A DNA stretch of 64,000 nt from an uncultured delta proteobacterium (GTDB lineage Bacteria; Desulfobacterota; Desulfobaccia; Desulfobaccales; 0-14-0-80-60-11): positions 960,001 to 1,024,000 of the forward strand of contig CAWETI010000003.1 of NCBI GenBank assembly GCA_963812015.1. The letters run 5' to 3'. Positions 36,507 to 59,175 of this stretch are shown piece after piece; the stretch's first letter is position 1, and the number at the start of each line of letters is the position of its first letter. The position numbers and the translations under genes are program-made. The notes under the pieces are model-generated. The model saw only the letters and a program-made list of their open reading frames with translations, searched no databases and had not been told where the DNA came from.

Positions 36507-36862
36507 AAGAATAAGGAAATGATAATAATTGAACGACAATAACCGAAACATACAGTTCCTTAAGGAACTGTCTGGGCTTTCTGGCGAAAGCCCGTGTTGC
36601 TCCAAAAGATTTTTTGGAATATCAGGGAGCGTTTTTAAAAGAAAATCATCCCGAGATTCCCTATAGGGGCCTCTGGGGAAAGTGATGATTAATCATCCCC
36701 GAAATCAATCTCTGGGTCTTTGCGCGGGCGGTCCAAGACCCGCAAAGGAATTGATGATGTGAGACGTGGGAGACGGCCTGAAGCCCCCACCAGGCCACCC
36801 CATGCCCAGCCCCCCTGGTAAGGGTTTAATGATCACGATGCAATATGGGATAACAGATTAAT

Positions 36863-37351
36863 ATGAATAGGATTTCAAAGCAAAAATCAGACCAGGGTTT
36901 AAAGAGGGAACAAAGCCCATATTCGATATTCCCTAAGCCCTTGCGCAAGGTTAAGCACGGCCTCTACATGGCGCTGGAGCGCCACGAGATTGACGGGCGG
37001 ACAAGGCTTGCACAAATCCTCAGGCGGGCGACGGAGCTGCTGCTTGAGGGACACAAGGAGCCAGCACCCGGCCCGGCCCAGCTATTGGCCCAGCGGTGCG
37101 CCGTGAAGCTGATCCGCGCGGCATCCTACGAGGCGGCGCTGCTGGGGGGCAAGGTGGAACTGGGGGCCGGGACGGAGAAAGATTATCTGATGCTCTGCAA
37201 CAGCATTAGGGCGGACATTATGGCTTTGAGCACTCTGATGAAAGAAGGCCAGCCTTCTGACAGACCTCCCAGCCTTGAGGAATACCTGGCCGCCCTAAAA
37301 TCCGGCAAGATCGTGCCGGTGCAGGGCGAAGCCCAGGATGAGGGTAAATGA
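36863..37351 (+). CDS. Hypothetical protein, possibly terminase small subunit-like
   Basis: KHGLY motif followed by helical region; lies upstream of TerL. Confidence 0.45.
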   Translation: MNRISKQKSDQGLKREQSPYSIFPKPLRKVKHGLYMALERHEIDGRTRLAQILRRATELLLEGHKEPAPGPAQLLAQRCAVKLIRAASYEAALLGGKVELGAGTEKDYLMLCNSIRADIMALSTLMKEGQPSDRPPSLEEYLAALKSGKIVPVQGEAQDEGK

Positions 37352-37364
37352 GATGCAATCCTCT

Positions 37365-37985
37365 CTAAATGGACAATTTGTTCGCCAGGGCCTGCCGCTG
37401 CTCCGGGAGAATGTCTGCGTAGAGAGCGGTGTGGGCAATGTTTTCGTGACCAAGCTGTTTTTGCACGAATTTGAGGTTTCCCGTGTCCGCCAGCAAATGC
37501 GTGGCGAAGGTATGACGGGCATGGTGGATTGTGTGATGCAGGGGCAGCCCGGCCTTCTGCAAGGCCTTCTTAAAGCTGAAGTACAGGGCCATGGTGGTGA
37601 AGGGCTTTCCCTCCCCATGAGAGAAAAGGGAATCACTGGGGCTGACAGGCTGCTTCCAGGTCTTGGCCTTGATGTCGATGTACCGCTTCAAGGGTTTGAC
37701 CAGCGACCCGTTGAAAAAAACATCCCTGGGCTTGTCCCCTTTGCCGCGCCTAACACTGATATAGGTTTCTCGTCCTCCCAGGTGGATGTCCCCGATCTTG
37801 AGGGCGGCGATCTCGCCCACCCTGAGGCCGCTACGCAGGGCCAGGGCCACCAGCATATGCCGGGTGACCCAAGTCTGCCGCCCCTTGAGCAAGTCGAGGT
37901 CGGCCTGCTCCTCGCAGACCTTCAAGAGCCGCTTGACTTCATCGGTGGAAAGGAACTTGTCACGGGTGATTTTGTACTGTCCCAT
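37365..37985 (-). CDS. Small (catalytic-domain-only) tyrosine recombinase
   Basis: SGLRVGE, GKGDK.R, HHARHTFAT, LGH....T.LY: R-K-H-R-H-Y residues all present. Confidence 0.92.
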   Translation of the reverse strand: MGQYKITRDKFLSTDEVKRLLKVCEEQADLDLLKGRQTWVTRHMLVALALRSGLRVGEIAALKIGDIHLGGRETYISVRRGKGDKPRDVFFNGSLVKPLKRYIDIKAKTWKQPVSPSDSLFSHGEGKPFTTMALYFSFKKALQKAGLPLHHTIHHARHTFATHLLADTGNLKFVQKQLGHENIAHTALYADILPEQRQALANKLSI

Positions 37986-38055
37986 GGTCTTGGCCCCCCA
38001 TTTATTTTAATGAAAATATATAATAAATTAAGGAAAAGATAAAGGAAAAGGACAG

Positions 38056-38090
38056 TATTTTTAGGAAAATATTATATTTTCCTAAAAATA
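38056..38090. promoter_or_regulatory. Perfect 16-bp inverted repeat, candidate recombinase core site/operator
   Basis: TATTTTTAGGAAAATA-TTA-TATTTTCCTAAAAATA, 70 bp upstream of the recombinase start. Confidence 0.65.
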
Positions 38091-38103
38091 AGGCAGGCCC
38101 AAA

Positions 38104-38223
38104 ATGACAGAGCGCGAACTTGCCGCAGACCTGCTCAAGCTGCAAAAGGCTGCTCCGGAAATGTACCGGGCCATCATGCAGATGGTCAAGGCGGCGTTGA
38201 GGACAGTTGGCATAGTTAAGTAG
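38104..38223 (+). CDS. Putative 39-aa protein (not in ORF track)
   Basis: MTERELAADLLKLQKAAPEMYRAIMQMVKAALRTVGIVK, amphipathic; followed by a hairpin at ~38264-38308. Confidence 0.35.
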   Translation: MTERELAADLLKLQKAAPEMYRAIMQMVKAALRTVGIVK

Positions 38224-38336
38224 TGCCCCTTAAAAACTTAATCTGACAAGGCGCGCCCACAAGGCCCCCCTTGAGGTAGGTATCAACCTATCCATCGGGG
38301 GCATTTTTAATTTGTGGAGAAAAAGGAGGGGACATC

Positions 38337-38879
38337 ATGGACAGCTTGCCGGGCAAGGCCAATGTGGGCGGCGTCGTGCTGATGATAGTCTCGGAAGGGA
38401 AGGCACCGGCGCATTACCAATGGAAAAGAATCCTGGAGAAGGACTGGGCCGGGCCGTTCACGATCGCCAAACTAACCCGCTACCGATACCACATGGGACT
38501 CGACCCTGCCTTCGTTTGCGAGCAACCTCAATTCAAAAAAGGTCAGCTCCATTGGTACGAATGGATCATCTGCGAGAACGGCGGGGTGATCCATCTTTAC
38601 GACGAGGCAGAGAAATCCTTCGCCTTGTTGACCACGACCCAGACGGCCGCGAAGGTTCAGGCCGGGGTGAGGGAAGCCAAGCAGGCCCTCGAGACGGATG
38701 AGCGCCTGGGAAAGGAAATCCGTTTCCCGGCTGCGGTCTTGGAGCAGGTCTGCGAACTGGCCGGGGCCAGGATAGCCAGGAGGGGGCGCCCCTTGAGCCC
38801 GGAGCAAATGGCCTCTTTCGCAGAGGGCAGGAAACGGGGTATGGAGGCCATGAAATCGGCCGGCGGACCCTGTCTTTAA
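38337..38879 (+). CDS. Hypothetical protein
   Basis: ORF with strong AGGAGG RBS. Confidence 0.6.
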   Translation: MDSLPGKANVGGVVLMIVSEGKAPAHYQWKRILEKDWAGPFTIAKLTRYRYHMGLDPAFVCEQPQFKKGQLHWYEWIICENGGVIHLYDEAEKSFALLTTTQTAAKVQAGVREAKQALETDERLGKEIRFPAAVLEQVCELAGARIARRGRPLSPEQMASFAEGRKRGMEAMKSAGGPCL

Positions 38880-38946
38880 ACCCCGTTTCGGGTCCGATTT
38901 CAAGCGATACGCCCCGACCCCATAAAAAGGCATTGCTGGGGAGACA

Positions 38947-40479
38947 ATGAATATAATTCAAGCCATTGGAGACAGAAATTTGATAGGGGCGGGGTTCCCA
39001 GACCTCGCACCCTGGCAGCCCTGGAGGACGGCTCTAAAGGCCGCCTACGGCCTCCCCCTGGCAGACATTGACCTCCCCCTCTATCAGAGATGCACGGGGC
39101 GGCAAGCGGCCCCACAAGGCCCTGCCGGGGAGGTCTACTTCATAGTGGGGAGGCGGGGCGGCAAGTCCCGGATCACGGCGGCTACGGCCTGCTTCAGTGC
39201 GGCCTTTGCCGATACGGCCGTCTTGGCCCCCGGCGAGATCGGCCTGGTGGCCGTGATCGCCAACGACCGGGAGCAGGCCGGCATAATCATTTCATATTGC
39301 CGGGAGATATTCCGCCTTTCCCCCATCCTGGCGGGCATGGTGGAGGCGGACCTGGCCCAGGAGATAAGGCTGAAGAACCGGGTGAGCATCAAGATTCTGA
39401 CATGCTCCACGGCGGCCGTTCGTGGATACACCCTGTTGGCAGTGATTCTGGAAGAAGCAAGTTTCTGGAGAGTGGAGGGCAGGGACCCCGGCAAGGAGAT
39501 CTTGCGGAGTCTGCGCCCCGGCCTTGCCACCACTGGTGGGCCATTGATCGCCATAAGCTCACCCTACGCCAAACAGGGTGTCATGTGGGAGGCATTCTCC
39601 CGCTACTACGGCAAGGACGGGCGGGTCCTGGTCTGGCAGGCGGCCACCCGGACCATGAACCCGACCCTGTCCGCGGAAGTGGTGCAGCAGGCACTGGCTG
39701 AGGACCACGCAAGCGCCAAGACCGAGTACCTGGCCCTGTTCCGGGACGACATTTCGGGGTTCCTGGACATCGAGACCCTGGAGCCCCTGGTCGTTCATGG
39801 TCGGCGAGAGCTGCCGCCAAAGGAAGGTTTGCGGTACTTCGGCTTCGCAGCCCCCTCCGGGGGCCGCCAGGATAGCTTCACCCTGGGCCTGGCGCACCGT
39901 GAAGCCGATGGCCAAATTGTTTTGGACGTGATCCGGCGGCGGGTCCCCCCCTTCAATCCGGGTGAGGTGGTGGCCGAATATGCCCAGGTGCTCAAGGAGT
40001 TCAAATGCTCTCAAGTGACGGGGGACAAGTACGCGGCCGAGTGGGTCGTCTCGGCATTCCGGGAGCACGGCATTGACTATCGGAGCTCGGTAAGGGACAG
40101 GTCGCAGATCTTCCTGGAGGCCCTGCCCCTGTTCACCAGGGGCCAGGTGGAGCTGCTGGACGACCAGGCTTTGCTCTCGGAATTGCTTGGCCTGGAGCGG
40201 CGGGTGCGGCCCATGGGCAAGGACATGATAACCCACGGCCCGGCCGGGCATGACGACGTGGCGAATTCCGCCTGCGGCGCTTTGGTTCTGGCGGGGGGCC
40301 AGGGCCAGGGGGACGGCCTGGGCCTTTTCTACTATTACAAGGAGCTGGCCGCCCGGCTCACCGAACGGGCCAGCAACCGGGGACCGGAGGTCCGATACCA
40401 TATCACCGGCTCGAAAGGTCTGGTAACCACCACCAAAAATTACGGCGGGGTGCCGCAAAGAGGTAAGGATGAACATTGA
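38947..40479 (+). CDS. Terminase large subunit-like protein
   Basis: GRRGGKS Walker A, VRG..L.AVILEE Walker B region, ISSP motif III, C-terminal HDD. Confidence 0.82.
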   Translation: MNIIQAIGDRNLIGAGFPDLAPWQPWRTALKAAYGLPLADIDLPLYQRCTGRQAAPQGPAGEVYFIVGRRGGKSRITAATACFSAAFADTAVLAPGEIGLVAVIANDREQAGIIISYCREIFRLSPILAGMVEADLAQEIRLKNRVSIKILTCSTAAVRGYTLLAVILEEASFWRVEGRDPGKEILRSLRPGLATTGGPLIAISSPYAKQGVMWEAFSRYYGKDGRVLVWQAATRTMNPTLSAEVVQQALAEDHASAKTEYLALFRDDISGFLDIETLEPLVVHGRRELPPKEGLRYFGFAAPSGGRQDSFTLGLAHREADGQIVLDVIRRRVPPFNPGEVVAEYAQVLKEFKCSQVTGDKYAAEWVVSAFREHGIDYRSSVRDRSQIFLEALPLFTRGQVELLDDQALLSELLGLERRVRPMGKDMITHGPAGHDDVANSACGALVLAGGQGQGDGLGLFYYYKELAARLTERASNRGPEVRYHITGSKGLVTTTKNYGGVPQRGKDEH

Positions 40480-40564
40480 AAATGCACAAAAAGAGCTGGT
40501 TCGCCGCCTTCAGATTTCTCCATCCCTGAGCCAAAGAGTTCCCCAGCCCTGTGAAACCTCTGTC

Positions 40565-40620
40565 GTTATGCAGATCATATCGCAACCTTTTGGGTTGTGC
40601 TGATAATGGCAAGTTCTAGA
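40565..40620 (+). repeat. Repeat family 1 copy E (core plus right arm only)
   Basis: TTATGCAGATCATATC..TTTTG..TGATAA, aligns with the right part of copy C. Confidence 0.65.
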
Positions 40621-40655
40621 AACTTTTGTATCCGAAGTTTTCTCTTTGCTAAACC

Positions 40656-40719
40656 ATCTCTGGCTTGACTTGAACCCCAGACTAACTTAAAACTTGGTAC
40701 AACTACTGGGGGCAGGTCA
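40656..40719 (+). mobile_element. Orphan right end of the IS3-family element
   Basis: Near-identical to 59112-59175 (..CTAACTTAAAACTTGGTACAACTA..GGGGGCAGGTCA). Confidence 0.9.
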
Positions 40720-40853
40720 TGTGCTTGTTCATGGCTAGGTCGAGGTCGGGCACAATCCGGTGCAAACGGGCACTACTGGGCACTTTGGAACCTGGCAAAA
40801 CAGCTCACCGGAAAAACTTCACCAGCGTCCAGTAGACGCACTTTAAGATCGCT

Positions 40854-41822
40854 ATGAATCAAGACGTGCAACTTTTCTCCTCTACGGCGACCGCGGTATT
40901 CTTGGAGGCCTCTCCCTTTTTACTTTTGGGGGCGTTGCTTTCGTCGGTTTTTGAGGTTTATCTGCCGTCGGATCGCCTGGAGAAGTTTATGCCCAAGGGC
41001 CTTCTCTTAGGCCTGCTTTTCGGGCTGAGTGCCGGGATCTTGATCCCCACCTGCGAGTGTGGCGTGGTTTCAATCGTGCGCCGGTTATTGAAAAAGGGCG
41101 TTCCACCGCATGTGGCGATGACTTATATGCTCTCGGCGCCGGTTATCAACCCGCTGACTATAGCCGCCACTTATATTGCTTTTCGTGGGAATTTCTGGAT
41201 GGTCCTGGGGAGAATCGGTATAGTCGCGGCCTGCGCCTCCTGTATAGGACTGGCCTTGGCCAGGATCAATCCGGTTCTGCTGCTGCGAGGGAGGGAAACC
41301 GAGCCGGACCTCTGTGACCATGACCACACAATTTGTAGCCCTGCTGATGTGAACCATATGCCTCATGTCCATCTTGACGTGGCCCATGGGTGTGGCTGCG
41401 GTTGTGCAGTCCCCAAAGGCTCCAGGCTGATCCAGGTGTTCCAGCATACAGCTTCGGAGTTCTTGGATATGGGAACGTATCTCATTCTAGGCGCTTTGGC
41501 GGTCGGTTTTTTCAGGGCCTTGCTCCACCAAGAGTGGCTGGCTTTTTTTCAAGACAACGTCTTCCTGGCCATTGGGATGATGATGCTCCTGGCTTTTTTT
41601 CTATCAATTTGCTCGCAAGCCGATGCCTTTGTGGCAGCATCCTTTGTCACCTTTCCCATTGTGGCCCAGCTTTCCTTCGTAACGCTTGGGCCAATGGTTG
41701 ACCTTAAACTCGTCGCCATGTATGGGGCGGTGTTCCGCAAGCGCATAGCGCTCACGCTCATCGTAGTGCCGATAATCCTTATTTATATTTTATCGCTCCT
41801 GCTGGGGATAGTGATCAGGTAA
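40854..41822 (+). CDS. DUF318/ArsP-type permease with His/Cys-rich loop
   Basis: EA.PFLLLG, P.CECG, AP.INP, CS.ADAFVA, GP.VDLK. Confidence 0.85.
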   Translation: MNQDVQLFSSTATAVFLEASPFLLLGALLSSVFEVYLPSDRLEKFMPKGLLLGLLFGLSAGILIPTCECGVVSIVRRLLKKGVPPHVAMTYMLSAPVINPLTIAATYIAFRGNFWMVLGRIGIVAACASCIGLALARINPVLLLRGRETEPDLCDHDHTICSPADVNHMPHVHLDVAHGCGCGCAVPKGSRLIQVFQHTASEFLDMGTYLILGALAVGFFRALLHQEWLAFFQDNVFLAIGMMMLLAFFLSICSQADAFVAASFVTFPIVAQLSFVTLGPMVDLKLVAMYGAVFRKRIALTLIVVPIILIYILSLLLGIVIR

Positions 41823-42613
41823 TGATGGGACGAATCGGTGGAATTATCGAGGGACTCATTCTGCTGGCGATAGGTGCCTATGCCGGTCTGCTGGTTATTT
41901 ACGGGGATTATTGGCGATTCCTGAATCCTAAATTTAAATGGCTGACCGGTTTGACTGCGGCCATGCTGATTCTTATAGGCACAATAGCCATCTTCAAGAC
42001 CAACAAACGGGCAAGCTATTTCAGGATTTGCATTTTCCTTATCTTTCTGGGAATCATCTTTTGGGGAAATTCAGGAAGGCCGGTAAGCCCAAAAGCCCAC
42101 TCAAAGGCTCTTTTGGAAAGCCCGGCTGACGCGGTGTCCCGAGGTGAAAGGCTTGCTGAAGAGAAATCTCGCCTGGCCCTGAATGGCCTTGAGTACATAA
42201 AAATCAATCTTGGCGAACTTTACTCACTCTGCCAAGAACCCAAACCAGACAAGATAGCCAGTCGCTACGTAGTCCGGGGGATCGTCAAACGCACTAAACA
42301 AACGGATCGTTTGGGGTACTTTGTGCTTCTCAGGAGCGCGGTAGTTTGCTGTCTGGCTGATTCGGTAGGGGTGGGGTTCAGGGTGAAGTACGAGCGGCTG
42401 AATGAACTTGAGGATGGGCAATGGGTGGAGGTCTATGGGACCCTGAGGAGCCTGTCGAAGAAGTTGCCAAAGCCTCACCTGCGCATCAAAGAGATTCGTT
42501 TGACTGTCTTGTGCGATTCTCATATTTTGGTCCCGGCCAGCATCGTTGGAACGGAAGAGCCGGAAACTCCTTTCATGTTCGAGTTCAGTGATACTGAGCC
42601 ATATAGATTCTGA
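41822..42613 (+). CDS. DUF1980/TIGR03943-like permease partner
   Basis: N-terminal TMs, R..V.CC.AD, WVEV.G; coupled to the upstream permease. Confidence 0.75.
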   Translation: MMGRIGGIIEGLILLAIGAYAGLLVIYGDYWRFLNPKFKWLTGLTAAMLILIGTIAIFKTNKRASYFRICIFLIFLGIIFWGNSGRPVSPKAHSKALLESPADAVSRGERLAEEKSRLALNGLEYIKINLGELYSLCQEPKPDKIASRYVVRGIVKRTKQTDRLGYFVLLRSAVVCCLADSVGVGFRVKYERLNELEDGQWVEVYGTLRSLSKKLPKPHLRIKEIRLTVLCDSHILVPASIVGTEEPETPFMFEFSDTEPYRF

Positions 42614-42680
42614 GACTTATGGGACAACCCTGTCTAAATCTATTAACTGTTCCATCGGCTCATAACTTAAGGAAATTTTC

Positions 42681-44633
42681 ATGACCATCAAGAATGTGCT
42701 CTGCTGGTGGATAGCTGGCATGCTTATCGTTACGACCGGGTGTAGCGAAAAGACCCCACCGGCGCGGAAAGAAGTGCGGCTGATACCGATGCAGGATTTC
42801 TTCCGCAACCCGGAGAAAGCCGGATTCAAGATTTCCCCCAACGGCGAATACCTCTCCTTTCTGATGCCTTGGAAACATCGGCTCAATATCTTTGTCCAGA
42901 AGATCGGACAAGATCAGGCCATCCGGATTACCGAGTCGACCCAACGTGATATTACCGATTATCGCTGGGCTAACGACCTGCGGCTCCTCTACCTGATGGA
43001 CAAAAACGGCGATGAGAACTATCGGGCCTATGGCGTCAACCGCGACGGCTCCGACTTCAAAGAGCTGACGCCCTTTGAGAATGTCCGGGTCAGTATCATT
43101 GATGGGCAGGAAGATATCAAGGACGAAATCTTGATCGGCATGAATAAACGTAATCCGAAAATCTTCGATGCCTACCGGCTCAACATCTATACCGGCGCAA
43201 TGAAGATGGTGGGGGAGAACCCTGGCAACATCTCGGGATGGATGGCTGATAACGCCGGCCAGCTCCGCGTGGCAGTGGCTACCGATGGGGTTAATGAGAC
43301 CCTGCTCTACCGGAAAACCGAAGCCGATCCCTTCAGAGCCATTGTCACCACCAACTTTAAGGATACTTTAGCGCCTCTTTTTTTCACCTTTGATAATAAA
43401 TATCTTTATGTATCCTCCAACCTGGGCCGGGATAAGCAGGCGATTTACCGCTACGATATTGAAAATGATAAATTGTTGGACCTGATTTACGAACATCCGG
43501 AGGTGGATGTGGAAGTGCTCTTGCGGTCGAAGGCACGCAAGGTCATTACCGGGGTTTCGTTTTTTACCGATAAACGGCATTATTATTTCTTCGATAAGGC
43601 CCGAAGACAGATGCAGGAGACCCTGGAAGAGCAGCTGCCCGGCTACGAGGTAGTAGCAGGCGACGAGGGCAGAAACCTGAGGAGCAAAGATGAAACCAAG
43701 GTAATCGTCCGCACCTACAGCGATAAATCTCTGGGGGCGTATTATCTCTACAATCAGCTGAACCACGAGCTGAAAAAACTGGCCGACGTCAGCCCCTGGC
43801 TCCAGGAAAGCGAGTTAGCCGATGTGCAACCGATTCAATTCCAATCCCGGGATGGCCTCACCATTCATGGTTATCTGACCCTGCCCAAGGGGGCAGATCC
43901 GAAAAACTTGCCGGTGATAATTAACCCCCATGGCGGGCCCTGGGCCCGAGACCGTTGGGGCTTTGATCCTGAAGTCCAGTTCCTGGTTAACCGCGGCATG
44001 GCGGTCCTGCAGATGAACTTCCGGGGGTCCACCGGCTATGGCAAAGCTTTCTGGCTGGCGGGCTTCAAAGAGTGGGGCCGCAAGATGCAGGACGACATCA
44101 CGGACGGGGTGCAATGGTTGATCCAACAGGGCATCGCCGATCCCAAACGCGTTGGAATTTATGGCGCCTCTTATGGAGGGTATGCCACTCTGGCGGGCGT
44201 AACCTTCACTCCGGATCTCTATGCCTGCGGGGTGGATTACGTGGGCCCCTCCAACCTCTTCACCCTGCTCGCCTCATTCCCACCTTACTGGGGCCTGGAA
44301 CTCCAGAAGTTTTACGAGATGGTGGGCGACCCGGTGAAGGACAAAGAGTTGCTGACGGCAGTCTCCCCGCTGTTTCACGCCGATAGGATCAAGGGGCCGT
44401 TGTTCGTGGCCCAAGGAGCCCATGACCCTAGGGTGAAAAAGGCGGAGTCCGACCAGATTGTGGCCGCTCTCAAAAAACGCGGCATCAATGTCTTATACAT
44501 GGTCAAAGATAACGAAGGCCATGGCTTCAGCAACGAGGAGAACCGCTTCGACTTTTATCGGGCCATGGAAGAGTTTTTGGGCAAGCATCTGGGAACCCAG
44601 GTCGAAAGGCGAATCGAACCTAAAGCTCGATAA
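42681..44633 (+). CDS. S9 family serine peptidase (probable lipoprotein)
   Basis: HGGPW.RD, NFRGSTGYG, G.SYGG, D.RV...ES, EGHGF. Confidence 0.93.
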   Translation: MTIKNVLCWWIAGMLIVTTGCSEKTPPARKEVRLIPMQDFFRNPEKAGFKISPNGEYLSFLMPWKHRLNIFVQKIGQDQAIRITESTQRDITDYRWANDLRLLYLMDKNGDENYRAYGVNRDGSDFKELTPFENVRVSIIDGQEDIKDEILIGMNKRNPKIFDAYRLNIYTGAMKMVGENPGNISGWMADNAGQLRVAVATDGVNETLLYRKTEADPFRAIVTTNFKDTLAPLFFTFDNKYLYVSSNLGRDKQAIYRYDIENDKLLDLIYEHPEVDVEVLLRSKARKVITGVSFFTDKRHYYFFDKARRQMQETLEEQLPGYEVVAGDEGRNLRSKDETKVIVRTYSDKSLGAYYLYNQLNHELKKLADVSPWLQESELADVQPIQFQSRDGLTIHGYLTLPKGADPKNLPVIINPHGGPWARDRWGFDPEVQFLVNRGMAVLQMNFRGSTGYGKAFWLAGFKEWGRKMQDDITDGVQWLIQQGIADPKRVGIYGASYGGYATLAGVTFTPDLYACGVDYVGPSNLFTLLASFPPYWGLELQKFYEMVGDPVKDKELLTAVSPLFHADRIKGPLFVAQGAHDPRVKKAESDQIVAALKKRGINVLYMVKDNEGHGFSNEENRFDFYRAMEEFLGKHLGTQVERRIEPKAR

Positions 44634-44741
44634 ACGGTTTCAAAAACGCGGAGGCAGATTGGGTGCAGCTTGCGCAGAAAGTATTGTTATGCCCATTCTC
44701 CCAGACCAGGCTGTTAGACAAACATCTTAGATTTCACTAAC

Positions 44742-44957
44742 TGCTATGATCCGACAGTTATCACCGGACCAAAAACCTTCCATGTCCAGATCATATCGAC
44801 TCTTTTTGACCTGATGGCCCCCTGCCTTTTCGCCAGTAACCTGGCCTTTTTCAATCGTTGACTTCCAAAATCATCCTCCCCACAAATGCCCGCACAAGAT
44901 ATGCGGATCATAGCTGCAACTTTTCCGGGTTTGGGGATAATTGTCGGGTTTGGCAAG
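44742..44957 (+). repeat. Repeat family 1 copy A (left arm-core-spacer-core-right arm)
   Basis: TGCTATGATCCGACAGTTATC ... GATAATTGTCGGGTTTGGCAAG imperfect terminal inverted repeats. Confidence 0.85.
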
Positions 44958-45010
44958 ATATTCGCTATCTTCCCTTAGCTACTTTCAGGCAAGATCAACC
45001 TGCCAAAACC

Positions 45011-45087
45011 AACCTTTTCGGGATTAAACTCGGGGAGAGAGGTCACAATCCATTTGTGAATAGCGGTGGCTACGGCTGCCGCATAAT
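45011..45087 (+). repeat. Repeat family 2 copy S1
   Basis: AACCTTTTCGGGATTAAACTCG...GCGGTGGC-TACG-GCTGCCGCATAAT. Confidence 0.75.
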
Positions 45088-45193
45088 TTTAGTTAATACA
45101 TCCAAACATCCATGGTCTAAAAATTAAAGGGGTTGTGCTTCGAAATCAAATCCAACCCTAACGGTTTGCTCTGTTCCAAAAAGGATGAGAACT

Positions 45194-45340
45194 ATGGATG
45201 CTTCTTTATTCATCAGCTTCGGCCTTGTTTTTGTCGGTGGTTTATTTGCCCTAGTCTGTTGCATACTAAGCTTGGCATTCCCTTCCCAAAAGGGACAAGT
45301 ATTGTTTGATCTTTTATCCTGGCCGCATCATAAGAGCTAA
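45194..45340 (+). CDS. Putative 48-aa membrane microprotein
   Basis: MDASLFISFGLVFVGGLFALVCCILSLAFP...; purine-rich upstream sequence. Confidence 0.35.
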   Translation: MDASLFISFGLVFVGGLFALVCCILSLAFPSQKGQVLFDLLSWPHHKS

Positions 45341-45868
45341 GCATACCCACAGGCCCGCCCTCAGGACCCCCATAGAATCCCATGGGTAACGCCTTTCGGC
45401 CACTAATGAACCCCAGAAAGCTATACTGATTGTGGCAAGCCAGACCATGGCCATTTCTCAAGGGCTGGTGCTCCTATGTATCTTATGCGGTCAAGGGAGT
45501 ATTGTGGGCCAAGAAGATCGGGGGCGGAATACTTGTTTTCGGTGGGGGGGCTTCGTGCCACCATTTTCGATCTGCGGATCATATCCGCAAGTATTGGGAA
45601 TTTTTGAGAAGATTTGGTTTTGGCAAGTCATCAGCACATCCATTAATAATGTCTGGCCTCTTTGGTTGGCCACTGCCGGGCGGTGGTGCCTGGTGTTTTT
45701 AGTCATCCCAAAAAAGTGCCTTTTGGTCGCGGATAGGCTGGTATGCTCGAAATCTGAGGAAAAATTGACTATACGTCCAGATTTGTGGTAACTTGCCCCC
45801 TATGAGAAGAATTGGGTTCGCCAGCACCCATAAGGGCTTCGGCGCACAACACTAAGGGGTAGAGCGGG

Positions 45869-46144
45869 ATGAATAAGGCGCAACTCATCGAAGCTTTGGC
45901 CAAAGCTGAGAATCTCACCTTGAAGAAGGCCGAAATGGTGGTCAGAGCGTTTTTTGAGAATATGGCCAATGCCCTGGTGCAGAAGGAACGCATTGAAATT
46001 CGCGGCTTTGGCAGTTTCAAAGTGAAATTTTACAATGGCTATAAAGGCCGGAACCCCAAGACCGGCGATCTCATCAAGGTAGATGGCAAGAAATTGCCTT
46101 TTTTCAAGGTTGGCAAGGAACTGCGGGAACGCGTCGATCGCTGA
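45869..46144 (+). CDS. ihfB: Integration host factor beta / HU family protein
   Basis: MNK..LI, ERIEIRGFGSF, GRNPKTG, FFKVGKELRERVD. Confidence 0.85.
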   Translation: MNKAQLIEALAKAENLTLKKAEMVVRAFFENMANALVQKERIEIRGFGSFKVKFYNGYKGRNPKTGDLIKVDGKKLPFFKVGKELRERVDR

Positions 46145-46323
46145 GCTATTATCACAACCTGGTCGTATTGGATGGGGGATAGCGGTACCCTGTAACCCGA
46201 AAACCGCTTCCGTGCGATCATGCCTTCCGGGAGACAATTCCGACTGCGGTGGCCAAGGCTGCCGCAGCGCCTCGTTTCATAAATTAGCGGGATAACCTTG
46301 GAGAGCCGTTAGGAGAGGCGGCG

Positions 46324-46869
46324 ATGAAGCCACTGTCAAAGAGAGAAATCGAAAAAAAATGGGAGACTTATTTATATTACAAATGGGAATTTTTAAAGAG
46401 AAAACAGGAATTGTTATCACCAGTAAACGAGGAATTTCGAAAGGAGTTTGGAATTCCAAGAACTATGGATATTCTTGAATCAGGTAATAACGTCACGATT
46501 ACACCAGGGTTAACCCATCCAGACGTTCTGACCTCCCTTTTAGATTCAAAGAAGAAAAGACTTAATGTGTCAATTAATTTAGAGGCTCCTAACTGGTTGA
46601 TTGGTCTAATTTTCGAGCATTTAGTTAACTATACTCGGGAGAGAGAGGGCATTAAAGAAAAGAGAATATCTTTTGATAAATTGAATATCTATCTGAAAAT
46701 ATTTGATTTAAATAAGGAGGGCAAATCTCTAAAGAAAATAGCGAAAGAAGTTTATCCGATTGAGTACAGAAGGGGTCAATATGGCACAATGGATTCATTA
46801 CTTAAAAAGGTTAAGAGAAATATAGAAGAGGCTAATAGGATCGTTGACTCAGGAGGAAAAATAATTTAG
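46324..46869 (+). CDS. AT-rich hypothetical protein with possible C-terminal HTH
   Basis: YL.IFDL..EGKS...IAK.VYP; leader shared with the gene at 34684. Confidence 0.65.
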   Translation: MKPLSKREIEKKWETYLYYKWEFLKRKQELLSPVNEEFRKEFGIPRTMDILESGNNVTITPGLTHPDVLTSLLDSKKKRLNVSINLEAPNWLIGLIFEHLVNYTREREGIKEKRISFDKLNIYLKIFDLNKEGKSLKKIAKEVYPIEYRRGQYGTMDSLLKKVKRNIEEANRIVDSGGKII

Positions 46870-46980
46870 CTACCTAAAGTGAGGCATTATCTCGGCTGAA
46901 ACCGACGGTCACAAGTATGGGAACGCCGCTGTTGCAATGCGGTTCTTACGGCAGGATGCGGCCTGATCTGGAGGTACGTT

Positions 46981-47715
46981 ATGTCCCAGTGCCCTATCTG
47001 CAAAACAGCCGTATGGGCAGGGCAGCGCTACTGCTCCACCTGTGACAACTACCTCCCCCATCCGGAAGAAGCGAATTATTTCTGCCCCCGATGCGGCATC
47101 CAGGTGGCCCCCCAACAGAAACTCTGCCACAAGTGTAAGGCCACCCTGCCCCAGTTGGCCGGGGCTCTTGCGGTCACGGCCAACTCCTGGAGGCTCTTTC
47201 CCAGGGCACTAATTTTCCTGGCTACGGGTTTGGCCATTGTCGCCCTTCTCTGGATCTTCCTCCGCCACCAAAAGCCCGAACCTCCGCAGAGGATGGCAAC
47301 GCTGCTTCCTCAGGCCGGTTCAGTGCAGACTCCTGCTACTGCGCCGATCCCTACGAAAGAGATAGCCCCCTCGGCTCCCCAGGCTCCTGCGGCCCAAGAA
47401 CCCGCAGTCCCATCATTACCAGCAACCCCTGCTCCCCCGGAAGAGACGACACCAGCACCATCGCCGCCGCGGTACTCTGTGAAGGTCCGTAGTCTGGCCC
47501 TCCGGGATGCCCCCACAAGGTCTGCCTCTCGAATCGCCACCCTCAACTTCCAAGACGAGGTGGAGCTCATCGAAACCGCCGGCGCTTGGGGGAGAGTACG
47601 AGACGATCAGCGCAATCTCGTCGGCTGGGCCTCCCGGCGCTACTTGGAGCCGTTAGCGGCTGATAGTCCACCGGCCGTTCCCCAGAATTGGCCTCCAGGG
47701 CCCAAGGAGCCTTAA
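46981..47715 (+). CDS. Double zinc-ribbon, TM, Pro-rich linker, SH3 protein
   Basis: Four CxxC pairs, TM helix, L.LR..P...W.RV....VGW.S.RYL; GGAGG RBS. Confidence 0.78.
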   Translation: MSQCPICKTAVWAGQRYCSTCDNYLPHPEEANYFCPRCGIQVAPQQKLCHKCKATLPQLAGALAVTANSWRLFPRALIFLATGLAIVALLWIFLRHQKPEPPQRMATLLPQAGSVQTPATAPIPTKEIAPSAPQAPAAQEPAVPSLPATPAPPEETTPAPSPPRYSVKVRSLALRDAPTRSASRIATLNFQDEVELIETAGAWGRVRDDQRNLVGWASRRYLEPLAADSPPAVPQNWPPGPKEP

Positions 47716-47859
47716 CCTATTTCGTCTGAAGCTGCCAATGACATGTAGCGGTGGATGGCAAAGGTGGTTGATTCCAGGTGGGTCTTGGGCGCTGGGACAT
47801 GCATCTAGTTCAAATGAAAAAACAAGATTACTTAACTTCAAGGTAAAAGAAGGGATTCA

Positions 47860-48037
47860 GATATCTAGAGCATATCGACTCTTTTCGACCTGATAGCTCC
47901 CTCTCTTTCTCCCCGGCAATCTGGTCTCTTTCAAACGTAGGTGCCTGAAATCATCCTCCCCACAATGGCCCTTGGAGGATATGGAGATCATATCTGCAGT
48001 TTTTGCTAGCTTGGGGATAAGCTTCGGTTTTGGCAAG
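47860..48037 (+). repeat. Repeat family 1 copy B (starts at the left core; no left arm)
   Basis: GATATCTAGAGCATATCGACTCTTTT..AAATCATCCTCCCCACAA..GATATGGAGATCATATC..TTTTGGCAAG. Confidence 0.85.
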
Positions 48038-48266
48038 GTATCAGCCATTCTCGCTTCTCCTTTCCTACCAGCCTGACCAATCCCAGGAATCGGCGACCCC
48101 TCCCTATCTAAATTGCACTTCCGAAATCTTAACTAAACGAATATTAGGAATTTCGAAGGCTAAAGATAGGGAATTAAGCAAATATTATTAGGGAAACCCT
48201 AATTATCTTGAATTATGGAGGTTAATATAATAAAAGATTTACCTCATTTCGGAAAGGAGTGGAATA

Positions 48267-49256
48267 ATGTTTTCCCATATTTATCAAATGGTTAAGTTCT
48301 CCCTGAGCCTAAGCAAATTTATGCAAATGAGATTGAACAGCTTTCTGTTCCGTTTCCTCCCCTTCTCCGTCTCCCGATGGTACCTTATGGTCCTGGGAAA
48401 GTTTTACTATTTTCTGAACCGTATGGAGGAAGCCCTGATCCGGAAAACCATTCACCATGTTTTTCAAAGAAAATTCCCCGCCCCGGTCTTGAACCGGAAG
48501 ATCAAAGCGGCCTTCAATGGGATCTTCGACCATTACCATGAGAAGCTGTTCGTGGCTTATTCTCATTTCCCCACGCTGGTGAAGTTCTTAAAATCCCAGG
48601 TCAGGTTTTCCGGGGAAGAGGATCTTCAGGCAGCCTTGCACGCTGGCAAGGGGGTCATCCTGGTAACCGGTCACTTCGGGGCGGTGGAGTTCCTGCCCGG
48701 CGCCCTGGCGTTGAAAGGCTATCCCACTTCCATGATCTGCCGTTTCCAAACCAACCGCCTCCGGCAATCCATGGGGGAGCGGGCCGAAGCGGTCGGCCTG
48801 CACCTTATTGATGCGGATGAGGGCAACATCATTCTGTCGGCCATGAAGGCTTTGAAGCAAGGCGGCATCCTCATCACCGAATGTGACGAGTTTGACGAGT
48901 GGCGGCCTGATCCGAATCGTGATGGTTCCTTTCTCAAATGCAAGCTGCCTTCAGACCGAACTCTGGAGCTTTTACAGAAACGCTCGGGTGCCCAGGTCAT
49001 CACGGCCCTGGTACAACGGCAAGGGAAGAAACACTATACCTGTAACCTCACGGCCGTCGGCAACGGGGCCTTCAACCCATCCATTAACGAGCAGTGCTTA
49101 TCGGTTTTAGAAAAGGCAGTTGAAAATTACCCAGAGCAATGGTACCAATGGAAGAAGTTTGGTAGTATGATCAAACCGCAATTGGAGATCGAACCTGATT
49201 GGCATACACCTGGATATCTGCCTGATATTGGGTTTCCAATCCCCGATCAAGCATAA
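48267..49256 (+). CDS. Lipid A lauroyl-type / lysophospholipid acyltransferase family
   Basis: GKGVIL.TGHFG..E, PEQW.QW. Confidence 0.8.
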   Translation: MFSHIYQMVKFSLSLSKFMQMRLNSFLFRFLPFSVSRWYLMVLGKFYYFLNRMEEALIRKTIHHVFQRKFPAPVLNRKIKAAFNGIFDHYHEKLFVAYSHFPTLVKFLKSQVRFSGEEDLQAALHAGKGVILVTGHFGAVEFLPGALALKGYPTSMICRFQTNRLRQSMGERAEAVGLHLIDADEGNIILSAMKALKQGGILITECDEFDEWRPDPNRDGSFLKCKLPSDRTLELLQKRSGAQVITALVQRQGKKHYTCNLTAVGNGAFNPSINEQCLSVLEKAVENYPEQWYQWKKFGSMIKPQLEIEPDWHTPGYLPDIGFPIPDQA

Positions 49257-49410
49257 TCCGGCTGCCGATGAAGGCATCAGATAAGAGCTGGGCTGCACCG
49301 GGCTTGCCGGTTGTCCCTCAAGGCCAGATAAAGAGCCCCGGCGGTCTGTTATATTATTTGCATATTGCGCGGTTTGGATAAGGATTTAATCAGGCAAAAG
49401 TGTCAGGTAC

Positions 49411-49628
49411 TGCTATGATTCGAGATTTATCAACCTAGTGAAAATTCTACCTATCTGGATCATAACTTCAATTTTTAGCCTGAAAAATTCCCTTCGTTCC
49501 CGCCAGATGTTAGGGCTTCCTTCTCTCACCGGCAGCTGAAATCATCCTCCCCACAAATGCCCTTGGAAGATATGCAGATCATATCTGCAGCTTTTGCTGG
49601 GCCGGTGATAAGGGAAGGTTTTGGCAAG
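49411..49628 (+). repeat. Repeat family 1 copy C (full length)
   Basis: TGCTATGATTCGA..AAATCATCCTCCCCACAAATGCCC..AGATATGCAGATCATATCT..TTTTGGCAAG. Confidence 0.85.
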
Positions 49629-49649
49629 CTAGCGATGCTCTGGGCTCGG

Positions 49650-49703
49650 GCTCATGTCCGATTCTGTGAGGGCGTGGGGGGAGATTCCTCCATGCGACTC
49701 GAC
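49650..49703 (+). other. Probable group II intron 3'-end remnant (3' half of domain V plus domain VI)
   Basis: GCTCATGTCCGATTCTGTGAGGGCGTGGGGGGAGATTCCTCCATGCGACTCGAC resembles DV/DVI ending in AC. Confidence 0.5.
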
Positions 49704-49777
49704 TACGATCCCTGAAGCCCTGGTATGACAATTTGTTGAAAAAGTCTCACTCAAGGTTGTGCTATTATGCCTCCCAT

Positions 49778-49888
49778 GAGACAATTTGGCTGCAAAAAGA
49801 GGAACCTTCTCGGGATTAAACCCGGAAAGAAAGGTCGCCAAAATCGTTTTTGGATTGCGGTGGCAAGAGCTGTTGCATAATCTCGGAT
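49778..49888 (+). repeat. Repeat family 2 copy S2
   Basis: AATTTGG..AAAAAGAGGAACCTTCTCGGGATTAAACCCG..TGCGGTGGC..GCTGTTGCATAATCTCGGAT. Confidence 0.8.
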
Positions 49889-50009
49889 TATATAGGTCAC
49901 ATCCTGAAGAGGGGAGCGGGCCGGGGAAAGAAGACTCTGAGCAAGATTTTTCAGACGCCTTCCGTGCAGTTGTCATACTAGGAATTTATGCGACAGGCGC
50001 ACCGCACCG

Positions 50010-50100
50010 CTAATTGCAGACGCGGCAAGCGATAACCAAATTATTTTGATAGCCACCGTCACCCTTCGAGCGTGGCTGTATGTGATCCACGGTGAATGTC
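50010..50100 (-). pseudogene. HNH endonuclease fragment
   Basis: TVDHIQPRSKG.GG...NLVIACRVCN followed by a stop. Confidence 0.65.
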
Positions 50101-50156
50101 GTTGGCATTCTGCTGAAACCTGCTACCATTGGCTTGGCAGCCAAAAGGGAGCAACA

Positions 50157-50471
50157 ATGCGCTGGTACCACTATGTGGCGTACTTCTTCGGGGGCGCATT
50201 CCTCGCAAACACCCTGCCCCATCTCGGCAATGGGATCTCGGGGCATGCCTTCCAGAGTCCCTTCGCATCACCACCCGGGGTAGGCTTGTCCTCCTCGATG
50301 GTCAATGTCCTATGGGGACTCTTCAACCTTGCCGTCGGCTACCTGCTCGTTTGTCGTGTCGGCAGCTTCAATCTGCGCAAGACCCAGCACGTGCTCGTCC
50401 TCGGGGCGGGCATCCTGATCATGTCGCTAATCCTTGCCAACGCATTCGGACGATTCCACGGGGGGCTGTGA
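50157..50471 (+). CDS. Small membrane protein
   Basis: MRWYHY..FLAN..PH...G..G..FQSPFA.PPG.GLSS..VNVLWG; GGAG RBS. Confidence 0.75.
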   Translation: MRWYHYVAYFFGGAFLANTLPHLGNGISGHAFQSPFASPPGVGLSSSMVNVLWGLFNLAVGYLLVCRVGSFNLRKTQHVLVLGAGILIMSLILANAFGRFHGGL

Positions 50472-50586
50472 GCCTGCCTTTTCACGGTGGAAAGGTGTGG
50501 CGCAAACGACAGTGCATAAATCAAGTATAGATAACTTTCGTATCGGATATGTGACATTGATTAGATTGATATCGGCATTTTCAGAC

Positions 50587-50696
50587 GAGGAAATTTGGAT
50601 AAAAAAGTGGAAACTTGTGTGGGGTTAAACTCGTTTATAGGGCTCTCAAAAAATGTTTTTGACTGAGGTGGCAGAAGCTGCCGCATAATCTCGGAT
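50587..50696 (+). repeat. Repeat family 2 copy S3
   Basis: AATTTGG..AAAAAGTGGAAACTT..GGGTTAAACTCG..TGAGGTGGC..GCTGCCGCATAATCTCGGAT. Confidence 0.8.
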
Positions 50697-50719
50697 ATCA
50701 CTATCGAGGATAACATACC

Positions 50720-51346
50720 ATGGACCAAAACGATGGATTCATCCTGGAGGTTTTCTCCGATTACGTCTGACCCTGGTGCTACTTCATCACCGGGCGTGTT
50801 GAAAGGCTAAAGGAAGAGCACGAGATAGAGATCAGGTGGATTGCCTTCCCCCTTCATCCGGAAACACCGGAAGAGGGCTTGAGCCTCGAGGAGCTTTTCA
50901 AGGGACGGGGAATAGATCTCCCTTCGTCCATGGAGCATCTGAAGAAAGTCGCTGCCGAGTTGGGACTTCCCTGGGGTATGCGCACGAGAACCTACAATAG
51001 CCGCCGGGCGCAAGAACTCGGGAAATGGGCTGAGGCATTGGGCAAAGGGGTTGAGTTTCACATGGCTGTATTTCAGGCATACTTCGCTGATGGAAGGAAC
51101 ATCGCCGATATTTCGGTCTTGAAAGAGATCGCCGGGGCAATTGGCCTTGATGGCCGAATGGCGGAACAGGCCTTGACTGAGAGGACTTTCAAGGAAGCAG
51201 TAGACCGTGACTGGGATTATTCCCGCACCTGCGGCATTACAGCAGTTCCAACTTTCATGGTTGATGGGCGGAAAGTGGTCGGCGCCCAGCCTTACCAGGC
51301 TCTTGAAGACCTTGTAAGAGCCGCGGGGGGGAATATGCGGAAATGA
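50720..51346 (+). CDS. DsbA/FrnE-family thiol oxidoreductase, selenoprotein (UxxC)
   Basis: MDQNDGFILEVFSDYV-TGA-PWCY in frame with ORF 50879-51346 (F.LHP, GITAVPTF, GAQPY); hairpin 3' of the TGA. Confidence 0.88.
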
Positions 51347-51568
51347 TGGGCGCAGTATAGTATCTCGGGTTCTCTCCGACAAGCTTCACTTGGATGTGGT
51401 CTTTAGCCATGTGCCCTTCGATGATGCTAAACATATTGTAGATAAGCTGAGGTTAGCTGCAATCCATACACAACCCGGTTTCGGCGCAGGAGATGGCCGC
51501 CTCTTGCCACCTCCGGCTCAGATAACCTGGCTCACAAAAGAGGAAAACTTCTTAGAGAGATAGTCATC

Positions 51569-52114
51569 ATGAACGAGCTCCCTTTATCTAAGGCATACTG
51601 CTTCATTGAGCCAGGTCCGGTCGTGCTGGTGACGACCGCGAATGAGGAACGCGCTAACATCATGACGATGAGCTGGCACATGGTGATGGATTTTACCCCA
51701 TTGATCGGCTGCATCATTGGCCCCTGGGATTACAGCTTCACGGCGTTGAGTACAACTAGAGAATGCGTGATCGCAATTCCTACGGTTGATCTTGCATCCA
51801 AGGTGGTCGAAATCGGCAACTGTTCGGGTGATGAGATCGATAAGTTTAATGCCTTTGGCCTGACCCCGATGCCAGCCCAAAAGGTCAAGCCGCCGCTCGT
51901 GGCCGAGTGTCTCGTCAATCTCGAATGCCAGGTAGCAGATACCAGCATGGTTGATAAGTACAATCTCTTCATCCTGGAAGTGGTCAAGGCCTGGACCGAT
52001 CCAGAGCGCGAGGAACGCCGGACGATCCACCACAATGGGGATGGTACCTTCGTTGTCGATGGCAGGACCATCAATCTAAAGGAGAAGATGGTAAAATGGC
52101 AGGTTCACCTCTAA
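51569..52114 (+). CDS. Flavin reductase family protein
   Basis: EPGPVVLVTT, NIMTMSWHM, IGNCSG...DKF, VKPPLV.EC..NLEC, HH.G.G.F. Confidence 0.88.
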   Translation: MNELPLSKAYCFIEPGPVVLVTTANEERANIMTMSWHMVMDFTPLIGCIIGPWDYSFTALSTTRECVIAIPTVDLASKVVEIGNCSGDEIDKFNAFGLTPMPAQKVKPPLVAECLVNLECQVADTSMVDKYNLFILEVVKAWTDPEREERRTIHHNGDGTFVVDGRTINLKEKMVKWQVHL

Positions 52115-52166
52115 CCAAGCAGGCTATCGAGGACCAGATTCCGGATCATGGGACGTGCGATGTTGC

Positions 52167-52265
52167 TGCTATGATCCGACAGTTATCACAAAGCCAAAAA
52201 CTTCCCATATCCAGATTATATCCGCAATTTTCCTCACTCCACCGATAATTGTCCATTGTGGCAAG
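52167..52265 (+). repeat. Repeat family 1 copy D (left arm-single core-right arm)
   Basis: TGCTATGATCCGACAGTTATCA..ATATCCAGATTATATC..GATAATTGTCCATTGTGGCAAG. Confidence 0.85.
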
Positions 52266-52413
52266 ATAGCCGCTATTCGGGGAAATAAGAAGGCAGGGCC
52301 AAGGCTGACCCTGCCTGTATCTTAACCTCATCTCTTCCCCCACGGCTCAAGCCGCAGTCGCCGTTTTCAGTTCAGAATACGCTTCAGAAGCCCTCGAAGA
52401 CGTTTATGCTATG

Positions 52414-55070
<2,657 letters not shown>

Positions 55071-57819: not shown

Positions 57820-57974
57820 TGATCTGTGAACCCCGCCCCCCTGAGGCTCTTTTCTCCAGCCCTATCACCCCCCTTACTACCCCTAAATCGTGAGTAGCAA
57901 AGGAGTGGTGACCTGCCCCCCAAAAACTGATCCACATGTTAAGTTAGAGTAGTGGATCGAAGGGAGGCAGGGAG

Positions 57975-58253
57975 ATGAGCAGGAAGCGTTATACGCCGGA
58001 GCAGATCATTGGGAAGTTGCGGGAAGCAGAGGTGGCCTTGGCCCAGGGGGAGACGGTGGGCCAGGTTTGCCGAACCCTGGGTATTGCCGAACAGACCTTC
58101 TATCGCTGGCGCCGGGAGTATGGTGGTTTAAAGATAGAGCAGGCCAAGCGCCTCAAGGCCCTGGAGCAAGAGAATACCCGGCTGAGGCGGGCGGTATCGG
58201 ATCTCACACTGGATAAACTGATCCTCCAGGAGGCGGTAAGGGGAAACTTCTAA
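57975..58253 (+). CDS. IS3 transposase OrfA
   Basis: [29 protein letters not shown]. Confidence 0.93.
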
Positions 58254-59146
58254 GCCCGACCCGTCGGCGGCAATGCATTGAGCATATCCGGAAGGCTCTG
58301 CCGGTGTCGGAACGCCGTGTCTGCGGGGTGATTGGGCAACCGCGTGCGACCCAGCGTTACCAAGCCACCGAGCCTGATGACGAGGTGGGGCTGACTGCGG
58401 CCATCATTGGCCATGCCAGCAGGTATGGGCGATACGGCTATCGCCGTATCCTGGCGTTGCTGCGAAGTGACGGCTGGGTGGTGAACCATAAAAGAATGGA
58501 ACGGATCTGGCGACAGGAAGGGCTGAAGGTGCCCCAGAAGCAGCCAAAGCGGGGCAGGTTGTGGTTAAGCGACGGATCTTGTGTTCGTCTCCGGCCCTGC
58601 TGGCCGAACCATGTATGGTCCTATGACTTCGTGATGGCGCGGACTCACGATGGCAAAGCTTTCCGAATGCTCACCATCATTGATGAGTACACCAGGGAAT
58701 GCCTGGCCATCGAGGTGTCCCGGCGTTTTGATGCAGATGCGGTGTTGTATCGGTTGACAGAGCTGTTTGTGTCACGGCGCCCACCAGACTATATCCGATC
58801 AGACAACGGGCCGGAGTTTACGGCCAGGGCGGTTCGGGAGTGGTTAAGCCGAGTAGGAGTCAAAACGCTCTACATTGAACCTGGCAGTCCCTGGGAGAAT
58901 GGCTACAACGAGAGCTTCAATGGAAAACTGCGGGATGAGTTGCTCAACGGGGAGATTTTCACCACCCTGAAGGAGGCCCAGATCCTTATAGAACGCTGGC
59001 GGCGGGAATACAATACGGCAAGGCCTCACAGCGCCTTGGGTTATCGGCCACCCGCACCCGAGGCCATCCAGGTGATTTCCAGAGATCCTGGCTACGCTAT
59101 GCTCCGCCAGGATCTCTGGCTTGACTTGACCCCAATTCTAACTTAA
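58250..59146 (+). CDS. IS3 transposase OrfB (DDE), via -1 frameshift
   Basis: [49 protein letters not shown]. Confidence 0.93.
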
Positions 59147-59175
59147 AACTTGGTACAACTATCGGGGGCAGGTCA

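Follow-up and report, generated by a model that had tools for sequence, protein, structure and literature searches.

This study concerns a window of 64,000 nucleotides (the whole stretch of DNA analyzed, G000:C3:960001-1024000, where G000 is this genome and C2 and C3 are its two large contigs) from an uncultured delta proteobacterium of the Desulfobaccales, and in it a family of short repeats that lie between unrelated cargo genes, from an ArsP-type permease to katG (Table 1). Six copies, named A to F, occur there, all on the plus strand. Five had been described in an earlier note made from the DNA letters alone, and all five were found again in the same orientation and positions and with agreeing module content; the count itself was one short, F having been overlooked. 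[quoted passage not shown] The sites are recombinase-linked and mark block boundaries; they are not an integron.

Table 1. Repeat copies, genes and duplicated blocks (positions are those of the window; identities are to the second copy in this genome)
Feature	Position	Strand	Content or counterpart
Block 0	36792-40613		C3:457666-453858, 93.8%, 3.8 kb; homology stops exactly after GGCAAG of E
206-aa tyrosine recombinase	37365-37985	-	part of a phage-like block with a terminase-like gene
E	40565-40613	+	right half: core 2, T-tract, right arm ending GGCAAG; no other modules
Linker (~35 nt) and solo right end of an IS3-family insertion sequence	40614-40719	+	outward TTGACT / TAAAAC promoter-like hexamers
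Block I (4.1 kb)	40704-44798		C2:1630707-1634800, 93.8%; runs through left arm and core 1 of A
ArsP-type permease, DUF1980 protein, S9 peptidase	40854-44633		Pfam
A, left junction motif TAACTGCTAT	44738-44747	+	target-derived; retained in the G008 empty orthologous site
A	44748-44957	+	long gene-less copy: left arm, core 1, spacer, core 2, right arm; nhmmer E 5.8e-66; 44738-44968 with both junction motifs
A, right junction motif ATATTCGCTAT	44958-44968	+	
F	45569-45627	+	right half: core 2 hairpin GCGGAT-CAT-ATCCGC and right arm; between A and B
HU/IHF-family gene, extra copy	45869-46144	+	paralogs C2:1303627, C2:713300
RovC-like protein and zinc-ribbon/SH3 protein	46324-47715		Pfam
B	47858-48037	+	starts at core 1, without left arm; spacer, core 2, right arm
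Acyltransferase block	48036-49367		C3:888172-889511, 89.7%; begins at right end of B
Lipid A acyltransferase-like protein	48267-49256		Pfam
C	49407-49628	+	long gene-less copy; left junction motif GTACTGCTAT; nhmmer E 4.7e-63
HNH fragment			Pfam
Block V (1.5 kb)	50659-52174		C2:790333-791848, 99.7%; ends at left junction of D
Flavin reductase	51569-52114		Pfam
D	52163-52276	+	short copy: left arm, single core, right arm; flanks TTGCTGCTAT and ATAGCCGCTAT
katG and Fur-family gene	52415-55070		Pfam

The family is modular. Ten full copies from this genome align over ~230 nt, in which the junction word nTAnCTGCTAT is followed by the left arm GAyCCGAAACTTATCA and an A-tract, core 1 (CATATCCAGAnCATATC) and a T-tract, a spacer of ~100 nt containing AAATCwTCCTCCCCACAAATGCC, core 2 (AGATATGCAGATCATATCTGCA) and a further T-tract, and the right arm GATAAGTG-N5-TTTGGCAAG. 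Each core has 6-nt arms around a spacer of 7 nt (or 5 nt). A, B and C all contain the spacer motif AAATCATCCTCCCCACAA, which is nearly invariant across 18 long copies from 8 genomes. An nhmmer profile built from the ten full copies and searched on the two large contigs gave 74 matches, with E-values from 1e-46 to 1e-66 for A, B and C, far beyond chance. The modules are as the earlier note had them, with two cores around a conserved spacer in A and C, one core in D, B beginning at core 1 and E at core 2. Its description of the right arm as an inverted copy of the left holds over ~10–12 nt (GAAACTTATC / GATAAGTTTC) but not beyond, and the inverted repeats are subterminal rather than terminal; the left arm itself stands as well, but its outermost TGCTAT belongs to the flanking target motif, as judged from an empty site in a related genome. 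Small minus-strand open reading frames (ORFs) in A (70 aa) and B (63 aa) were rejected as genes, the frame not being conserved and C having a stop. Another sort of short element, found at C2:118755, 786192 and 1102979 and at C3:742690, also comes after the junction word TAACTGCTAT; its left part, TAATGCGCTCATCAAGAGGGTCTGGAAGTATTTCAC, differs and is joined to the core and right arm usual for the family.

The recombinase-bearing form of the family

In the full-length form, a 1.05-kb element, the same arms flank a single Xer-like tyrosine recombinase gene, read antisense, which upholds the earlier view that the sites belong with a tyrosine recombinase. The copy in this genome, at G000:C2:303527-302470, comprises in order the left arm, core 1, a hairpin, the recombinase gene on the opposite strand, a core-2-like palindrome and the right arm. 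Its translation has the catalytic residues R, K, HxxR, H and Y and matches PF00589 (E 1.6e-21); among NCBIfam models it comes nearest to XerA, XerC and XerD but stays far below the cut-off of each, and the closest solved structure is archaeal XerA 4a8e (E 1.6e-14). The repeats thus have a longer form with the same ends and a recombinase gene, whose product would be the mobilizing enzyme, and there is good support for identifying them as gene-less or truncated copies of an element with a tyrosine recombinase.

The element is not confined to this genome. Copies with 88–94% protein identity are carried by 7 of the 17 other genomes in the genus (the comparison set, whose members include G008), with the same architecture in different surroundings. 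A wider scan, taking one genome per species among metagenome-assembled genomes (MAGs) of Thermodesulfobacteriota, yielded 53 recombinase loci, assigned to Desulfobaccales, Syntrophobacterales, Desulfobacterales or Thermodesulfobacteriota; both arms stood at a fixed distance in 8 of these, giving an element of ~1,050 bp, with one arm in 8 more, and the outermost CTGCTAT... and ...TGGCAAG could be seen by eye even around relatives at 64–68% protein identity. Intact copies lie at differing places in the relatives, and two copies in one MAG (L054 and L055) are 99.5% identical over 1,045 bp and have unrelated flanks, the shared part extending from CTATGATC to GGCAAG. For the recombinase-bearing copy of this genome, a search of its flanks in the relatives found no contiguous empty site.

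Two features of the recombinase loci deserve mention in their own right. A run of six to nine A residues lies near codon 20 in 33 loci (in the range L042-L093, and at G000:C2:302572-302690), and in 28 of the 33 the first 17–21 codons (MKVSKAVNLFLDYHKLNS...) are one register behind the main 249-codon frame, such that a full recombinase is made only with a +1 shift or from an mRNA short of one A; two of the loci with the run are in frame, and more distant relatives lack it. Judged from these reading frames the run looks like programmed slippage, and a frame change at an A-run is typical of many IS transposase genes. Also, in L050 (and L056) the left arm is ~0.9 kb farther from the gene, so that the element would be ~1.9 kb, possibly a natural cargo-carrying form with extra DNA between gene and left arm.

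The earlier note had pointed instead to a recombinase within the window. That gene is indeed present (Table 1) but is not cognate to the repeats, with 27% identity to the element recombinase over 94 residues and no element arms flanking it. It has a paralog at C3:456502-457053, inside a duplicated phage-like block, and a perfect 35-bp palindrome, TATTTTTAGGAAAATAT-A-ATATTTTCCTAAAAATA, lies at 38055-38090 of the window in an AT-rich stretch upstream of it. The IHF subunit noted in the same island was found as the HU/IHF-family gene.

Junctions, distribution and block boundaries

Both the full and the short forms are shown to be mobile, by their presence at different loci and by empty sites. The counterpart of the permease/peptidase block in G008, 94% identical, reads ...CACTAACTGCTAT/CTATTTGCTACTCC... 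(the slash marks the junction) and has no element, while the window at A reads ...CACTAACTGCTAT/GATCC...(A)...GGCAAG/ATATTCGCTATCTTCCC... The orthologous empty site in G008 is ...TAACTGCTAT/CTATTTGC..., and since it keeps TAACTGCTAT, this word is target sequence. Similarly, the acyltransferase-block paralog at C3:888172, which lacks B, reads ...CACATAGGAG/TTATCCGCTATTCTTAC... where the window has ...TTTTGGCAAG/GTATCAGCCATTCTCGC... The consensus is nTAnCTGCTAT/GAyCC at 33 left ends and GGCAAG/wTAkynGCnAT at 42 right ends, which defines the mobile unit as GATC...GGCAAG, placed beside a TAnCTGCTAT-like motif. The genome has 28 free TAwCyGCTAT sites, several of which share longer context; pairing of flanks across all instances of the family revealed no empty paralogous sites other than IS-related ones.

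Three separate module profiles (left, spacer and right) run on the genome matched 40 left, 18 spacer and 62 right modules, which merge into 75 instances: 14 long (two of them beginning at core 1, as B does), 14 short, 32 right halves, 11 left halves, two of spacer plus right, one of left plus spacer and one of spacer only. Within the genus the repeats are found in 15 of the 17 other genomes, including all seven that are recombinase-positive and eight without the recombinase gene (several of those eight are incomplete); neither of the two repeat-free genomes has the gene. The clustering in islands that the earlier note had proposed to check for is present. There were 44 neighbor pairs within 10 kb, compared with 12.9 expected and a maximum of 23 in 2000 trials of random placement, and 42 of the 44 were co-oriented. 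The upstream ORF is co-oriented at 48 of the 75 instances and at 25 of 28 complete copies, usually 50–150 nt away, and 12 of the 75 overlap an ORF by more than 30 nt, all by crude longest-ORF gene calling.

Homology had been proposed to break at the core, with D an empty site, A and C filled and B and E hybrid. The full profile gave 41 matches with a truncated start, of which 24 begin inside 22 nt at the left edge of core 2, and 25 with a truncated end, of which 19 stop within the stretch made up of core 1 and its T-tract; the 14 short copies add to both counts by construction. Truncations therefore do concentrate at the cores, but the cores are whole, half copies retaining one complete core and none being hybrid, and insertion polymorphism is at the outer ends. 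The scheme of empty, filled and hybrid sites was not supported: D is the short version, and A and C the long version, of one gene-less, transposon-like element found genome-wide.

Several observations concern individual places of insertion. At katG (window 52415-54601; loci L022-L028 in relatives) the region downstream is a recurrent landing place, with different copies or halves there in G008, G014 and G015, and no element was found within 1.5 kb of the katG loci of G011, G002, G005 and G001. At G000:C2:1181126-1182300 an integrase-like gene and then an IS91-type (HTWDQ...HHHLH) transposase frame come immediately after a left half that an IS3 copy has cut at its outer end. The composite of right arm, ~35-nt linker and IS3 end seen after E recurs at C3:1477044 (minus strand), C2:446891 and C3:794878, and an IS3-family IS or its solo right end lies ~35 nt past the right arm in loci L047, L067 and L078 also; a full IS3-family copy is at 57909-59175 of the window. 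This suggests that an IS3-family IS targets a spot beyond the right arm, or that the composite spreads as a unit.

Many of the cargo genes are duplicated. The window holds second copies of the permease/peptidase block, the HU/IHF gene, the acyltransferase and katG, and in the 17 other genomes of the genus each of its blocks has another location, none of these genomes repeating the window order. Past core 1, block I continues in the window into the long spacer and at C2 into a short element whose right arm and flank differ, while at the C2 end of block V there is a long element with an unrelated right flank. None of these blocks, the acyltransferase block included, has a copy at its other edge, and no left arm was found at the left edge of block 0. 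Duplications of low copy number and 500 bp or more have 267 distinct ends, of which 18 lie no more than 25 nt from an instance, compared with 0.78 expected, a 23-fold excess. Flanking blocks do change at the elements, but most of these edges are at the right end or left junction and fewer at the core. An 827-bp unit, with an 86-codon ORF having a hydrophobic N-terminal stretch, is bounded as GGCAAG/...GGCAAG/ at two places and sits behind a different right half at each. A second repeat family, at window 45011-45094, 46246-46266, 49803-49888 and 50612-50696, reads AACCTTyTCGGGATTAAAC... followed by GCGGTGGC-N4-5-GCTGCCGCATAATCTC and is promoter-like (TTGACT...CATAAT in one copy); one of its copies forms the left edge of block V.

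Mechanism and alternative explanations

In the reading that we favor, the recombinase would excise the element as a circle, and the circle would be re-inserted at the motif by conservative site-specific recombination of the Campbell type. The repeated wTATC words in the arms and cores may be binding sites of the recombinase, and gene-less copies would be mobilized in trans. Because each insertion adds new motif-plus-arm junctions, later insertions and exchanges would concentrate at resident copies and could gather them into co-oriented islands such as that at 40.5–52.3 kb. The junctions are compatible with a short att-type core shared by element and target, possibly GCTAT or just TA, the motifs being imperfect. 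Since only a broken recombinase gene is present in this genome, its copies are likely to be relics. Repeated insertion at a hotspot, together with recombination between copies, is the simplest explanation of the cargo mosaic; the association of block edges with elements could come from the recombinase acting on pairs of sites, and can equally come from homologous recombination or gene conversion among the 75 repeats.

Several points weigh against this reading. Within one copy, the left and right junction motifs match at only ~7 of 10 places while flanks differ by ~6%; this is no replicative target duplication, and the motifs amount to neither a clean duplication of the target nor a common core that is proven. 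Neither an excision product nor a circle junction occurs in the assembled contigs of the sequencing runs, which as contigs only are uninformative either way; for run X1, whose contigs hold 79% of the words, no joint was reported, and joints in the contigs of X2-X4, with sides of 20–38 letters and 90% likeness, connect repeats that belong to other organisms. The single recombinase copy of this genome is broken by a TAA and a frame change, with no intact gene here. Right halves outnumber left halves by ~3:1, which simple decay does not predict, and the boundary of block I is at core 1 rather than at an element end. Local alignment of the long-form spacer with the interior of the recombinase element, for five long copies, gave z of 1.2 or less relative to shuffles, such that derivation is undetectable, and the candidate origin of the spacer as a remnant of the recombinase gene ends was not supported at the same value. 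The proportion of complete copies behind co-oriented genes rests on crude longest-ORF calls.

An alternative explanation could be a true cassette system, in which cores and/or junction motifs are live sites and the Xer-like recombinase moves whole gene blocks, as an integron-like array without attC. It could account for the excess of block edges at element landmarks; for block I, which passes the left arm and core 1 and then joins another right arm and flank; for block V, which stops at the left junction of two different elements; and for the 827-bp unit bounded by GGCAAG twice behind differing right halves. Also consistent with it are the distant left arm of the recombinase-bearing L050, the different placement of the window blocks in every relative and the position of complete copies behind co-oriented genes, which is that of attC sites. 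However, the block edges occur at three landmarks (right end, left junction and core) rather than at a single crossover point, and are often one-sided, blocks 0, I and V each having the other edge away from any element. For that reason we rate a true cassette mechanism as unlikely. Homologous recombination or gene conversion between the repeats would also set edges at their most conserved stretches, the cores and ends; empty sites show the elements themselves gained and lost as units, the source-like run has no joined or circular forms (in assembled contigs only), and this genome lacks a working recombinase. The proposal that junction motif and cores are working sites, by which the self-encoded recombinase both moves its own 1-kb element and carries or swaps gene blocks between islands, is similarly doubtful.

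Two further possibilities fare much worse. The copies might be structured RNA or terminator-like 3′ elements with a host function, mobility being secondary, given that complete copies mostly lie 50–150 nt downstream of co-oriented genes, that core 2 can fold a 6–7-bp hairpin with a T-tract after it, and that the spacer motif is so little changed between genomes. Yet Rfam at gathering score matched no family in the window; RNAalifold on 18 long copies gave -0.67 kcal/mol and 4 pairs without covariation; and arm pairing specified together with the core hairpin gave 73.4% paired, compared with 71.4% for shuffled sequences, 37 of 500 shuffles being as high, a weak and non-significant signal. Complementarity between own arms was 3.6 of 8 pairs, compared with 2.8 for shuffled partners, in a regular-expression set that includes spurious pairs. 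The conservation of the ends is accounted for by the recombinase gene that lies between the same ends, and a primary RNA role is very improbable. Derivation from a single-strand transposon of the HUH type (IS200/IS605 or REP/RAYT), as hairpin-ended derivatives, would fit the local strand bias, the subterminal palindromes and the lack of clean target duplication, but with just three weak Y1_Tnp (PF01797) matches in the genome, none beside a copy, and a classical tyrosine recombinase encoded in the full-length form, it can hardly be credited.

Comparison with known systems

The earlier statement that the sites are not attC was confirmed. The boxes of attC are RYYYAAC...GTTRRRY, and the element ends GATCC...TTTGGCAAG, compared by eye with this consensus, do not match, so that attC identity was rejected; none of the 22 genome matches to the integron integrase family TIGR02249 exceeded its cut-off (best 122 bits vs 265), the window recombinase scoring 77.5 bits and the element recombinase 44.4. 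Like integrons, the family has co-oriented, imperfectly palindromic sites downstream of co-oriented genes, an array and a tyrosine recombinase; unlike them, its sites are genome-wide, single, and inserted at sites that can be found empty, with ends GATC.../...GGCAAG and no IntI. The catalytic residues of its tyrosine recombinase it shares with integrative elements of the Campbell type.

The likeness to insertion sequences and their MITEs is a closer one, with an autonomous form of ~1 kb and one gene, many gene-less derivatives that have the same two ends, insertion polymorphism, an intergenic position and clustering. Small insertion elements with one gene are known that use DDE, HUH or serine enzymes; here the enzyme is instead an Xer-like tyrosine recombinase, the inverted repeats are subterminal, and the element inserts beside a 10-nt motif with no clean target duplication. 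A 1-kb element of this enzyme class with a large miniature family was not met in the titles and abstract openings searched (ISfinder was outside the comparison). It would represent a compact recombinase with site selectivity, defined ends of ~60 nt each and a short motif as target, which makes the element directly testable. In addition, its relics mark where gene blocks were duplicated and reshuffled in their hosts, so that the family may serve as a practical marker of flexible islands in Thermodesulfobacteriota genomes, and it is a candidate driver of paralog traffic between islands.

As a builder of islands by site-specific integration the element resembles the tycheposons of Prochlorococcus, for which Hackl et al. 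(bioRxiv 10.1101/2020.12.28.424599) describe cargo-carrying, transposon-like elements that integrate site-specifically at seven tRNA genes, their repeated excision and integration remodeling genomic islands of flexible genes. Relative to that account, insertion here targets a short motif lying downstream of genes, a scan found no tRNA gene in the window, and the element is a 1.05-kb one-gene form of which most copies are relics of 60–230 nt. The nearest analogue of the cassette reading, from what titles and abstract openings convey, is the dif (pdif) modules of Acinetobacter plasmids, in which gene modules bounded by short Xer-type sites are shuffled between replicons. Sites of dif are 28 bp, with XerC and XerD arms around 6 bp, and are acted on by the host XerCD; in contrast, the sites described here are 60–230 nt with arms and cores, have their own recombinase and are all co-oriented. 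Were the cassette reading true after all, this would add a third tyrosine-recombinase system of gene accretion to integrons and dif modules, one native to bacteria related to sulfate reducers and supplied by duplicated chromosomal genes.

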